Part shown: positions 1,324 to 34,402 of the stretch, in pieces
How the letters are laid out: every line of letters begins with the position of its first letter
How positions within the stretch are numbered: the stretch's first letter is position 1
Source: Thermoanaerobaculia bacterium
GTDB lineage: Bacteria; Acidobacteriota; Thermoanaerobaculia; Multivoradales; JAGPDF01
Direction: 5' to 3'
Length of the DNA stretch: 64,000 bases
NCBI GenBank assembly: GCA_963719555.1
Contig: CAVRCL010000005.1
Coordinates: 201,606-265,605 of the forward strand
Position numbers and translations under genes: made by a program
Notes under the pieces: model-generated
Database searches by the model: none
What the model was told of the DNA's origin: nothing
What the model saw: the letters and a program-made list of their open reading frames with translations, nothing else

Positions 1324-1370
1324 CCGCCGCATCCTAGCGGACGGGGGCGGCCGCACGCCGGTAGCCGGCC

Positions 1371-1481
1371 GGGGCTCGACGAAATCCCCTGCGCGCAGTG
1401 GCGGGGGGCCCCACCCTCAAGAGAAGAAACCCAGATGAGACCTGGGGTCCCGACCGAGCACAGGGGATTTCGTCGAGTCCC
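1371..1481. repeat. ~110-bp element with 17-bp perfect terminal inverted repeats (CTCGACGAAATCCCCTG / CAGGGGATTTCGTCGAG) and a nested imperfect inner IR; long-hairpin or MITE-like
   Basis: Read directly: 1375-1391 is the exact reverse complement of 1461-1477. The 69-bp spacer holds GGGGCCCCA / TGGGGTCCC. It sits in the divergent intergenic region ~50 bp upstream of the dusB start. Confidence 0.5.
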
Positions 1482-1532
1482 GGTCGGCGGCGAACTTGCG
1501 CCGGGAGGGGTGCGGGAGGCTGAAGCGGTAGA

Positions 1533-2531
1533 ATGAGAGGTTCGATGTTGCGCCTCGGAAACGTCCCGATCGATTCGCCCCTGATCCTCGCGCCGATGGC
1601 CGGGGTGACCGACCGCGACTTCCGGCTGATCGTGCGCCGGATCGGCGGCGTGGGATTGGTGACGATGGAGTTCATCGCCTCGCGGGCGCTGGTGCGCGGC
1701 GTCGCGCGGACGCTCGACCTGATGCACTTCCTGCCGGAAGAACGCCCGATCTCGATCCAGATCTACGGCTCGGACCCCGACACCATGGCCGAGGCGGCGC
1801 GCCTGGTCGAAGCGATGGGCGCCGACATCTGCGACATCAACATGGGTTGCCCGGCCAACAAGATCCTCAAGGGCTGCTCGGGCTGCGCTCTCATGGGCGA
1901 CCTCGAGCTCGCGGAGACGATCGTCGGGACGGTGCGCAAGGCGATCTCGATCCCGCTGACCGTCAAGTTCCGGCTCGGTCTCGACCACGAGCGCCGGAAC
2001 TTCCTCGAGCTCGGCCGGATCTGCGAGGCCTCCGGCGCCGACGGCGTGGCGCTCCACGCCCGCACCGCGCGCCAGATGTTCAGCGGCGACGCGACCGTGC
2101 AGTGGGACGAGATCGCCCGCCTCAAAGAGGTGGTCGGCATTCCGGTTTTCGGCAACGGTGACATCAAGGAGCCCGGCGACGTGCTGCGGATGATCGCCGC
2201 CACCGGCTGCGACGGGGTAATGATCGGTCGCGCGGCGACCAAGAACCCGTGGATCTTCCAGCAGGCGGCTGAGCTCCTCGCCGGCCGGGAGCCGCAGGAG
2301 GCCTCGCTCCTCGCCCGCCGCGATCTGATCCTCGAGCATTTCCGGCTGGTCGCCCTGCGCGAGCCGTCGAAGTACGCCATGCACAAGCTGCGCAAGTTCA
2401 CCGGCTGGTACACCCACGGCGTGCCGCACGGCCGCGAGCTCCGCCAGCGCATCAACGAGCTCCAGGACGTGCCGTCGTTCCTCGCCGCGGTCGAGGACTT
2501 CTTCGAAGAGATGACCGCGGCGGCGGCTTGA
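1533..2531 (+). CDS. dus: tRNA-dihydrouridine synthase
   Basis: Intact 332-aa ORF with LILAPMAGVTD, GADICDINMGCP and FGNGDI motifs of the Dus family (DusB-like). Confidence 0.9.
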   Translation: MRGSMLRLGNVPIDSPLILAPMAGVTDRDFRLIVRRIGGVGLVTMEFIASRALVRGVARTLDLMHFLPEERPISIQIYGSDPDTMAEAARLVEAMGADICDINMGCPANKILKGCSGCALMGDLELAETIVGTVRKAISIPLTVKFRLGLDHERRNFLELGRICEASGADGVALHARTARQMFSGDATVQWDEIARLKEVVGIPVFGNGDIKEPGDVLRMIAATGCDGVMIGRAATKNPWIFQQAAELLAGREPQEASLLARRDLILEHFRLVALREPSKYAMHKLRKFTGWYTHGVPHGRELRQRINELQDVPSFLAAVEDFFEEMTAAAA

Positions 2532-2570: not shown

Positions 2571-3011
2571 TTGCCGCAGGCCCTGGCCACCGCCGCCGAC
2601 GCCTGGGGCGCAGAGTGGAGTGGCGACAGCTCGAGGGACCGATCGAATCCAAGCGGCGGACGGCTCGTTCTGCCGGTGGTCTTCGGGCTGCGTCGCGGGG
2701 TGCTCGTCGGCCGGGTCGACTTCGAACCTGCGGGTGATGGCGCGCGCATCGCCTGGCAACTCGAGGAGAGCCACCTCGAGGTGCAGCGCGCTTCGGTCGG
2801 CGTTCTCGGTCTCGCGGTGCTGGCCCTGCTCCCGGCGCTCGCCTGGCCGTTCCAGCCCAGGCTCCTCGCCCTCCTGCCGTTCGCCGCGGTCATGGGCCTC
2901 CTCGCCTGGTGGCTGGTTCTGTCGCGCCTCGAAAACAGCGGCCCGGAGGAGTTCTTCGCCACCGTCGCCACCGCTGCCGCCGTCAGTCGCCCCACCGCAA
3001 AGCCCGACTGA
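2571..3011 (+). CDS. hypothetical small membrane protein
   Basis: 146-aa ORF with two hydrophobic helices (VGVLGLAVLALLPALAW, LLPFAAVMGLLAWWLVL), directly downstream of dus. No homology recognised. Confidence 0.3.
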   Translation: MPQALATAADAWGAEWSGDSSRDRSNPSGGRLVLPVVFGLRRGVLVGRVDFEPAGDGARIAWQLEESHLEVQRASVGVLGLAVLALLPALAWPFQPRLLALLPFAAVMGLLAWWLVLSRLENSGPEEFFATVATAAAVSRPTAKPD

Positions 3012-9472: not shown

Positions 9473-10985
9473 TCAGGGCACCACGGTCTTCGACCAGAAG
9501 AAGGTCGTGCCGGACTCGAAGCCGTCGGTGAAGATGAGCGCGCTCGTCAGCCGGCGGAAGGAGAAGTCCCAGTCGAGCCCGCTCCACTGCCCGGAGCCGA
9601 CGAGCACCGGCTTTCCTCCCGAGAGCGTCAGGCAGTGGAAGTCGTCGTTGCCGTCGCCGCTGCCCACCGGCGGCATGTCGAAGGTCCGCTTGCCGGTACC
9701 CAGGCCGCCGAAAGAGCTGTCGAGCCCGGATTCCGCGAGCACCCGCGCGACGCCAACGTCGATGACGTTGCCGGTGTCCCCGGTGATCGCCGCCGCCGCG
9801 ACCACGATCTTGCCATCGGACTGCACGACCATGCGGTTCATTCCGCCTCCGCCGTCGCCCCCTGAGCCGCCGATATCGAAGGCGACGTACTCGGTGAAGG
9901 CGTTGTTCAGGGTGCCGTCGGGACCGAGGCGGGTGACCACGATGTTCTCTTCGTTCAGCAGGCCGTACTCGCCCGCGACGACGATGCTCCGGTCGGGCTG
10001 GAACGCGATCGAGCGCAGATAGGCCGACGCGAAATCGGTCGATCACCAACTCTCCCGTGCCTGCCCCCGCCGAAGGTCGGGTCCAGATTCAGGGTGCTCC
10101 CCAGAATAGCGGGCGATCGCCATCGAGGCGAAGAAGTCCGGCGGACCGGTCTTTCCCCATCCGCCGAGCAGGACGTTGCCGTCCGGTTGGAACGCCATGG
10201 CGGTCGGAATCGTGGTCGCGAAGACGTAGCCGGGGAAGGTGAGGGCGCGGACGTCGTCGGGTTGCCTACCGAGTCGAGGAGCTGGAAGATCCACCAGCCG
10301 GTCCCGTCGGCGAGCAGCCGGCCCAGCAGCCAGATCCGGCCGCCGGGGTCGACGCCCACCGCGGTCACCCCGGTGTCCATCCCGAACTCGAGGTAGAAGC
10401 CGTTGATGGCAAAGACCGGATCGATCCAGCCGTCCGGGAGGATCCGGGTCACGAAGCCGATGCTCGCCCCGGTCGAAATCAGGGCCATGGAGCCGGCGAC
10501 CAGGATGCGACCCTGCGGGTCGATCGCCATGGCATGGGCCCGACCTTGCGTCGCCTGAATGCCGATGTCCGAAAGATCGATGACCAGCCGCCCGTCGCTG
10601 TCGAAGGTCGGATCGAGGAGGCCGTCCGTCTTGACTCTGGCGATCGCGATCTGGCCCTGCTCGCTGTCGTTCGTCGTCGCCGACCCGGCCAGGAGGATTT
10701 GCCGTCCGCTTGGGCGGCGCAGGTGCGGGAGAGATCCGTCGCGGCGAAGTTCAGGTCGAAGGGGATCGAACCGTAGCCGCCGAGGTCATCGAGACCGTCA
10801 ACGGCGGGCAACATCTGAGCCTGCAACCCGAGCAGGGTGGCAAGAGCCAGAGCGAGGTGCGAGCGGCGAAAGCGCGCGGCGGAAGGCTGACGGGATCGAA
10901 TCGAACATGGCGGACCTCCTTGCACCATGAACGTGCGAGGCGCCGCGAAAGGGATCAGTCGAGGCCCGGGCCGGTGAAGACGCAT
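9473..10985 (-). CDS. secreted delta-60-repeat protein with the same C-terminal tail (IFTDGFESGTTFFWSKTVVP); frameshifted
   Basis: N-terminus RRSHLALALATLLGLQA looks like a signal peptide. Repeats of the P/QDGKIVVAG, LDPTFGGGG type run through ORFs 10479..10985, 9955..10530 and 9473..9940. It is convergent with the previous gene, 11 bp apart. Confidence 0.65.
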
Positions 10986-13244: not shown

Positions 13245-13596
13245 GGGGGCGCACCGGGTTCGACGGGGAACAGTGCGGTTCGAGGGTTGCGCATCGGGTT
13301 TGCACCCGTAAAACGGCAAGTTATACCTGCCAACGACAACTACGCTCTCGCGGCTTAATTGACCGTGACGTTCCAGCCATGGGCCATTGTCCACGGCACG
13401 GGCTGGGGCGACGCTAAAGTGGACTGAACGCTGAGGTTGGTTCCGCTCCTCAGCGGGATCGTCAAATCGGAACTGGCGCTTGCGTAGGCGGCCTTCTGCA
13501 TTGCGCAAGGGCGATGACCATAAGTGAAGGCTATGTGCGTAGATACTTTCGGGACGCGTTTCTCGGACGTGGGTTCAATTCCCACCGCCTCCACCA
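13245..13596 (+). ncRNA. ssrA: tmRNA (SsrA), one-piece; tag peptide ANDNYALAA
   Basis: 5' GGGGGCGCACCGGGTTCGACGGG, tag ORF GCCAACGACAACTACGCTCTCGCGGCTTAA (13329-13358), tRNA-like 3' end GGACGTGGGTTCAATTCCCACCGCCTCCACCA. A CATAAT -10 box lies 7 bp upstream of +1. Confidence 0.9.
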
Positions 13597-33329: not shown

Positions 33330-33419
<90 letters not shown>

Positions 33420-33439
33420 CGGTGTTGTTCCTGATTGGA

Positions 33440-33529
<90 letters not shown>

Positions 33530-33631
33530 CGTTCACAGCCGTCTTCTCAAAGAACCCGTGGCGCGAGGCGGGAACTGCTCTCTCCCCGGCCCGTTCGCCC
33601 TACTCTTTCCGCTGCCCCTTCTGCGGCACCG

Positions 33632-34222
<591 letters not shown>

Positions 34223-34262
34223 TTACAGCGCCGCCCGTCGCCATTACGATGCAGTCGACCGC

Positions 34263-34391
34263 GAGCCGGAAGCGAAGGGTTCAGGTCCTGTGCATCGAAC
34301 GGTTCCGAACCTCGTCAGGCCCGGAAGGGAGCAGCGATAAGGTCCTCGCTTCGGGTGCCGCAGGAGTGCCGGAACCCTTCGCCTCCGGCTC
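34263..34391 (+). ncRNA. ffs: signal recognition particle RNA (small, 4.5S type)
   Basis: GTCAGGCCCGGAAGGGAGCAGC (34314-34335) matches the conserved SRP RNA domain-IV motif (E. coli GUCAGGUCCGGAAGGAAGCAGC). The 5' GAGCCGGAAGCGAAGGGTTC pairs with the 3' GAACCCTTCGCCTCCGGCTC. A TTTACA-N17-TACGAT promoter lies upstream, in the classic position before dnaX. Confidence 0.65.
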
Positions 34392-34402
34392 GACACAATT
34401 CC

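Follow-up and report, generated by a model that had tools for sequence, protein, structure and literature searches.

A covarying 125-nt hairpin between bshC and dus is one copy of a sparse, possibly REP-like family in Thermoanaerobaculia-type Acidobacteria

Long-hairpin MITEs (Correia/CREE, ERIC, RUP-type) are imperfect palindromes of 100–150 bp that lie between genes, and a GTAG foot is a hallmark of the REPs of E. coli. REPs are repetitive extragenic palindromes that are mobilised by RAYT transposases (PMC3116915). REPINs form hairpins of about 100 nt in single-stranded DNA or mRNA, in which compensatory changes are common, and they are further characterized by an inverted arrangement of units, an asymmetric tail and clustered units that carry their flanks along (PMC3116915). 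Using a combination of folding, comparative alignment and covariance-model searches on a stretch of Thermoanaerobaculia DNA of 64,000 nt (hereafter the window), we find a hairpin upstream of dus that belongs to a hitherto undescribed family of ~125-base hairpins in Thermoanaerobaculia-type Acidobacteria, the group to which Dus homology and source names assign the organism.

In the window this hairpin spans 125 nt (1364–1488), so that the structure reported by the first-pass annotation stands while its extent of ~110 bp proves too small. The 17-bp perfect inverted repeat seen there upstream of dus is indeed exact, 1375–1391 (CTCGACGAAATCCCCTG) being the reverse complement of 1461–1477, and it sits at the center of an outer stem of 28 bp, in which 1364–1391 pairs with 1461–1488 and two of the pairs are G-U (1368-1484 and 1374-1478). 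Inward of this stem, pairing continues through two 2-bp helices into a 9-bp helix, GGGGCCCCA/TGGGGTCCC (1405–1413/1443–1451), and ends in a 29-nt apical region (1414–1442), which confirms the nested inner repeat and the purine-rich loop of the earlier description. The apical region, purine-rich in the window copy, varies in length and sequence among subclades and parts the two halves of a conserved inner core. The 5′ half of this core (CGCGCAGTGGCGGGGGGCCCCACCC, 1392–1416), near-invariant in all eight copies of the family including those at a second locus, comprises two short helices and two internal loops and supplies the 5′ strand to the 9-bp helix; its 3′ half (TGGGGTCCCGACCGAGCACAG, 1443–1463) contributes to a wobble pair, G1408-T1448, that is present in every copy. 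On the same plus strand the hairpin is preceded by a foot motif, GGTAG (1360–1364), whose last G pairs with C1488, and followed by a 3′ tail, CGGCGAACTTGCGCC (1488–1502), a small palindrome that is conserved over 13–15 nt and travels with the hairpin. Each unit comprises five parts: a GT(R)AG-type foot, a 28-bp outer stem that serves for pairing only, an invariant imperfect core, an apical loop free to vary, and a short tail on the 3′ side. A small ORF or leader peptide starting from the ATG at 1434 was considered and rejected, because neither the ATG nor the frame is kept in the other copies.

Folding, which the first-pass annotation had proposed as a check, yields a strong hairpin: as RNA, the plus strand reaches a minimum free energy of −83.6 kcal/mol (z = −7.5), equaled by none of 200 shuffled sequences, and DNA parameters give the same picture (−47 kcal/mol, z = −6.7). 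The minus strand as RNA has a similar energy but carries mismatches at the sites of the plus-strand G-U pairs. No perfect inverted repeat in the 64-kb window is longer than the 17-bp stem. A stem of at least 17 bp arose in 1 of 30 simulated windows, which makes the 17-mer by itself borderline; it is through its extended stem, its nested helix and its conservation among relatives that the hairpin goes well beyond chance.

The hairpin lies between a bshC gene on the minus strand (BshC, PF10079, E 8e-53; ATG at 1323) and a dus gene on the plus strand (Dus, PF01207, E 2e-84; ATG at 1545). Across relatives, the sole invariant blocks of the spacer are CATCCTAGCGG and GCGGTAGAAT..GGTTCGATG. On the bshC strand, CATCCTAGCGG reads TAGGAT, a −10-like box (1331–1336, minus strand) that ends 7 nt before the bshC ATG (1323–1321) and is invariant in alignment A1 and in L137; the second block contains TAGAAT, a −10-like box (1529–1534, plus strand) 10 nt before the dus ATG that is invariant in alignment A1 and reads TAAAAT in L137. 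Both boxes are outside the element, and within L137 1465–1503 the bshC/dus spacer, 33 nt long, is just the two −10 boxes back to back. This arrangement suggests two divergent promoters from which bshC and dus mRNAs would be leaderless or near-leaderless, with start sites predicted from the boxes. The two ends of the hairpin are at roughly −42 as counted from bshC and about −54 as counted from dus; with both −10 boxes between it and the ATGs, it would then lie upstream of both core promoters and outside the dus 5′ UTR. A structured 5′-UTR RNA, one of the options of the first-pass annotation, is thus not supported, since the boxes keep their 7–10 nt from both starts even with a 33-nt spacer, and since the element occurs in either orientation and also in a 3′-3′ spacer. 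A dus riboswitch or leader was likewise rejected, given the predicted start sites, as TAGAAT is downstream of the hairpin and the element faces bshC in L132, L044, L127 and L129, and an intrinsic terminator was rejected as the stem is followed by no T-run on the folded strand and the element stands between two gene starts. On the far side of dus, the window has a hypothetical ORF of ~146 aa with no Pfam match (2571–3011); each close relative has, at the same position after dus, an ORF of 148–163 aa with no recorded Pfam hit, which in several of them starts within an overlap with the dus stop.

Seven further copies of the element were found: five at the same bshC/dus spacer in related genomes (L044, which is MAG_190 (JBPOHI01), L132, L127, L129 and L135), obtained by sequence scans and one protein look-up, and two at a second locus, L142. 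Together with the window copy they form the eight-copy set used throughout, and a comparison of the dus upstream region among relatives, as the first-pass annotation had advised, thereby recovers the hairpin with covariation in five related loci. The foot motif is GGTAG in three copies (window, L135 and L142 copy 2), GTGAG in four (L132, L044, L127 and L129) and neither in L142 copy 1. The tail keeps its position and orientation relative to the hairpin in L132 and L044 (CGGCGAGCTCGCG), L127, L129 and L142 copy 2 (CGGCGCGCTCGCGCC); comparison of the tail with the reverse complement of the L132 flank gives p = 0.048.

The element is absent from L001-4, L005, L006/7 and L137. Its distribution is patchy even at short distance: the closest Dus relatives lack the hairpin, the Dus of L001-4 having 94.7% amino-acid identity, and in the dus tree carriers fall into three subclades with non-carriers interleaved. 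The spacer measures 221 nt in the window, 95–104 nt in L001-4, 94 nt in L005 and 54 nt in L006/7. A single metagenome, JGI 3300012533, contains both a carrier contig (L132) and a non-carrier one (L002). Non-carriers retain footprints that comprise the foot or tail with the first bases of an arm (GGTAGCCGGCTCG in L005, CGCAAGCCCGCCGGCTCGAAG in L001), L129 has one full copy and a collapsed second one, and L044 and L132 each have an additional partial arm. Three further features of these spacers deserve mention in their own right. The entire 220-nt bshC-dus spacer is 98–99% identical between L132 and L044, whose flanking coding DNA is 85–95% identical, which could come from constraint or from recent recombination. 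On their tail side, L129 (~90–125) and L127 have a second, smaller stem-loop placed between the hairpin and the −10 box of bshC, GCGCTCTCG...CGAGAGCGC in the former and GGCGGACTCG...CGAGCGCCGCC in the latter, that differs in sequence and keeps its pairing. Lastly, the metagenomic contigs L127, L129, L135 and L141 stop 20–250 nt from the bshC/dus spacer, consistent with assembly breaks caused by the palindrome or with strain-level variants in presence, absence or orientation.

Among the six bshC/dus copies, 99.2% of cells are paired and six pairs show compensatory double changes; none of 500 shuffles reaches the pairing or the covariation score of this alignment, and sliding the partner columns abolishes the pairing. 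The eight-copy alignment was fitted to the covariance model and is drawn from mutually related sequences; in it, pairing holds at 98.5% of pair positions and covariation is seen in 17 of 41 pairs, a level that none of 500 shuffles attains. RNAalifold recovers the same fold independently. All but one of the 17 covarying pairs belong to the outer helix, and the inner core is near-invariant across the eight copies, one G-U pair included. Between subclades, identity amounts to 93–100% in the inner core, 67–84% in the outer stem and 36–56% in the apical loop, and the third-codon positions of dus are 66–83% identical in the same comparisons. On the plus strand of the window, wobble pairs occupy six alignment positions against one C-A, and the eight-copy alignment holds 22 wobble cells against five unpaired ones. 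As wobble pairs are thus found almost only on the plus strand, one strand folds, as RNA or as single-stranded DNA.

Orientation differs among lineages. The hairpin points toward dus in the window and in L135, and toward bshC in L132, L044, L127 and L129. Window positions 1363–1500 are 96% identical to the flipped L132 copy, including a 13-nt tail beyond the stem and the arm polymorphisms, and the flanks of the two copies align in neither orientation. Since the tail and the arm polymorphisms move with the element and the flanks cannot be aligned, we reject both arm-to-arm flipping in situ and inversion of the whole spacer. Intermediate states are preserved in two spurious ORFs from a protein database, known from translation only. 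In P0122 a complete dus-pointing unit comes first, and after it a 23-nt arm stub set in a flank of the L044 type; in P0121 a window-type foot with a 21-nt arm stub precedes a complete unit that points toward bshC. These states are most simply explained by a spacer that has held inverted pairs of units, of which different lineages deleted one or the other.

Such a pair is found intact at L142, a locus reached through a six-frame-translation query of the protein database. Here two full units lie tail to tail in a 3′-3′ spacer between the genes of a TonB-dependent receptor and a class II aminoacyl-tRNA synthetase. The covariance model gives them 101 and 92 bits; their core is identical and their stems have diverged yet remain paired, copy 2 has GGTAG and the tail, and the copies are old, not products of recent transposition. 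Both L142-type hairpins recur in P0124, a related spurious ORF known from translation only, apparently at the orthologous place in another genome. With two or more loci and few copies, the family is dispersed but sparse. Elsewhere on the L142 contig there is a textbook REPIN that belongs to another family, GGGCGACGCATGCGTCGCCC+CTAC ... GTAG+GGGCGACCATGCGTCGCCC (L142 1594–1613 and 1700–1838), with inverted partners, a third REP close by at 1594 and no copy in the window, from which it follows that REP-type systems exist in the genome behind that contig.

The first-pass annotation had expected a mobile family to show additional copies in the genome. Seven exist elsewhere, with diverged outer stems, and none in the 64-kb window, where the covariance model with filters off returns no second copy, the 17-mer of the outer stem has no further occurrence with up to three mismatches allowed, and no 12–16-mers are over-represented. 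Model searches of the flanking DNA of related loci gave no further copies. The model also has no match in ~0.7 Mb of mostly unrelated genomes and related loci (L138-141), and so gives no false positives there. DNA scans with outer-stem sequence found only the bshC/dus copies; they used the variable part of the element, so that only close copies were findable. A second six-frame-translation protein search, with a concatenated query of 1003 aa, returned nothing and was probably swamped by low-complexity candidates. The Rfam scan that had also been proposed gave no family at the gathering threshold: the window, the element region and AT-rich look-alikes have no match in Rfam 15, the only one at E ≤ 10 being a chance hit to mir-1296 (14.8 bits against a threshold of 100). 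Plasmid and phage BLAST and a viral contig scan gave no match, and a literature search for a 12-mer gave unrelated primers only. Exact-protein look-ups with the Dus of the window matched no record. No transposase was seen at the loci covered, and the Pfam-annotated genes of the relatives' loci (flanks ≤21 kb) and of L142 include no Y1 transposase. As for a target-site duplication, no consistent direct repeat was seen, the candidate 9-mers lying at different offsets in the window and in L132.

The AT-rich look-alikes were picked up by a 12+12 stem pattern on contigs whose JGI names are our sole ground for assigning them to termite-gut metagenomes. We rejected these hairpins (L128/L134 and L130/131/133) as relatives: their interiors are dissimilar in either orientation, and the 12-bp match does not extend and has a different position in the stem, so that it reflects chance by search design and not homology across phyla. 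They form a separate family of G+C-rich hairpins of 100–125 nt at two loci (L131 7053–7175, L133 and L130; L134 2252–2519 and L128), which resemble each other between the loci (p = 0.003) and show compensatory stem changes. L134 also has two extra tandem copies of the 5′ flank and 5′ arm with a period of ~68 nt.

The window has other structured features as well. The SRP RNA (called at 34279–34378) lies inside a longer hairpin (34261–34393), where a 24-nt inverted repeat of 92% complementarity (34262–34285/34369–34392) lengthens the helix by ~17 nt per side past the Rfam boundaries; this outer helix could be an extended or precursor stem. A tmRNA gene (13245–13596) scores 157.9 bits, and two adjacent 87-nt tRNA genes on the minus strand (33334–33420 and 33444–33530) are long for tRNAs, at least one having a long variable-arm insertion. 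A 20-nt inverted repeat of 95% complementarity with a 92-nt spacer (9403–9422/9515–9534) is placed at the 3′ ends of two convergent ORFs, its right arm being inside the ORF at 9473–9940.

A hairpin family with this structure, strand bias and conservation pattern, present at two or more loci, arranged in inverted pairs and patchily distributed with remnants, leads us to favor, with moderate confidence, a low-copy dispersed extragenic palindrome of the REP/REPIN/BIME-like kind, ~125–130 nt in length and acting as a single-stranded hairpin. Of the MITE- or REP-like mobile repeat put forward by the first-pass annotation, the REP-like half survives in the form of a low-copy family defined by its core, whereas a classical high-copy MITE does not. 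We suggest that the plus strand of the window would fold as a hairpin, putatively in single-stranded DNA, and that a protein acting in trans would recognize its invariant core and foot motif; the most plausible candidate is a transposase-like enzyme of the REP-associated (HUH/Y1) kind that acts on single-stranded DNA. Units would be copied locally and into other spacers, often ending as inverted pairs, if the family is or was actively mobile. As long palindromes are unstable, copies would repeatedly be truncated or deleted. Such a mechanism would explain why close relatives have no element or only footprints, why most relatives carry it in the orientation opposite to that of the window copy, and why extra partial arms occur.

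A conceivable alternative, which we consider less probable, is that the element represents a new family of structured non-coding RNAs with a role in cis or in trans, the plus strand being transcribed as a hairpin RNA of ~125–140 nt. Its invariant internal loops would then, equally tentatively, form a binding or catalytic site, the outer stem would close the structure and paralogues would reside at a few loci. The pattern is a classical one for RNA, in that the outer helix covaries, the asymmetric internal loops and one G-U pair are invariant and the apical loop varies, and the bias of wobble pairs to one strand, the purine/A-rich unpaired and apical residues of the folded strand, conservation far over the synonymous-site level and a G+C content of 69% against 70% in the host all fit it, as does the finding that each L142 copy is co-directional with its upstream gene. 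In these respects the element resembles the orphan hairpin RNA motifs of comparative genomics (Rfam-style candidates), which share its covarying closing helix, invariant internal loops, variable terminal loop and narrow phylogenetic range. Yet no copy has a promoter-like −10 upstream of the foot or a U-tract terminator after it, although canonical terminators are in use on the same contigs, and no Rfam family accounts for the element at E up to 10. Moreover, an uninterrupted 28-bp RNA duplex would be a substrate of RNase III, the element is dispensable in sister lineages, and orientation flips at one locus together with truncated arms are unusual for an RNA gene and set it apart from the orphan motifs. 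More speculatively still, an invariant asymmetric core within a freely covarying 28-bp helix may mark a new class of functional single-stranded nucleic-acid motif. We would give somewhat less weight to this idea, under which the motif would be a protein-binding or catalytic RNA, or a single-stranded DNA site for an enzyme, maintained in few copies per genome in Thermoanaerobaculia and not a decaying selfish repeat.

We consider it unlikely that the element is a regulatory palindrome of double-stranded DNA, that is, a cruciform or a protein-binding spacer by which the back-to-back promoters of bshC and dus would be insulated or tuned, perhaps in the manner of an invertible switch. Its place just upstream of both core promoters, its differing orientation among lineages and the near-identity of the whole spacer between L132 and L044 (98–99%, against 85–95% in the coding flanks) would agree with such a role. 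Against it, the −10 box lies anywhere between 15 and 41 nt away from the foot, the element is found also in a 3′-3′ spacer without promoters, and a wobble bias of one strand is unexpected for duplex recognition or a cruciform and agrees poorly with the regulator binding site that the first-pass annotation had offered. Nor does the unit behave like an inverton such as fimS. Both are intergenic, with inverted repeats and both orientations occurring, but here the orientations are fixed in different lineages, and the flipped unit (1363–1500) has no inverted repeats at its limits, takes in the tail that lies beyond the repeat and has flanks that align neither way. The element bounds show no recombination-site repeats, the 21-kb annotated locus of a relative contains no recombinase or invertase gene, and the element is present also away from promoters. 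An integron attC site (RYYYAAC ... GTTRRRY) was rejected on the base of the stem, GCCGGCC...GGTCGGC. To explanations other than these and chance we likewise assign a small probability. Finally, a fortuitous palindrome without biological meaning, which the perfect 17-bp stem alone might allow at about 1 in 30 simulated windows, has a negligible chance of being right and is excluded by strong conservation with covariation, the fold (z = −7.5) and the invariant core of eight copies at two loci, where the first-pass annotation had expected such a palindrome to lack both further copies and conservation in relatives.

Should the REP-like reading be right, it would extend REP/REPIN-type elements to Thermoanaerobaculia-type Acidobacteria, and in an unusual form: a single 125-nt hairpin with a central recognition core, free ends and a very low copy number under clear purifying selection. 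The combination of a central core, free ends and low copy number bears on how such elements are recognized and maintained, and the element turns the spacer that carries it into a hotspot where DNA is deleted, duplicated and inverted. If the element acts as RNA instead, it would be a new structured family for which a covariance model is already at hand.

Compared with the known systems, the element departs from REPs first in scale, its palindrome of 125 nt contrasting with 20–40 nt and its single unit being ~4 times longer. REPs and REPINs are present in tens to hundreds of copies with over-represented oligomers, whereas the 64-kb window has one copy and no enriched 12–16-mers, no RAYT was seen in the loci examined, and copies within a genome are strongly diverged in the stem. 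In REPs and MITEs alike the ends are conserved, whereas the present element has variable ends around an invariant inner core. Accordingly, conserved terminal inverted repeats of the MITE kind are lacking, the termini being the most variable part (67–84% identity between subclades and very different in L142); nor is there a target-site duplication or a near-identical multi-copy population, and one strand is favored. The likeness to REPs, REPINs and BIMEs nevertheless covers several traits. The element is extragenic and predicted to form a hairpin of ~100–130 nt in single-stranded DNA or mRNA, compensatory changes (17 covarying pairs) preserve this hairpin, and units are found in inverted pairs (L142, L129) and in clusters with partial units. 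The element also has an asymmetric tail and a patchy presence among relatives; its 5′ foot is GTAG-like (GGTAG) in three copies, reads GTGAG in four and shows neither motif in L142 copy 1. With the long-hairpin MITEs of the Correia/CREE, ERIC and RUP type, in turn, it shares its size, its imperfect palindrome, its place between genes, its presence or absence at orthologous sites and its occurrence in either orientation.
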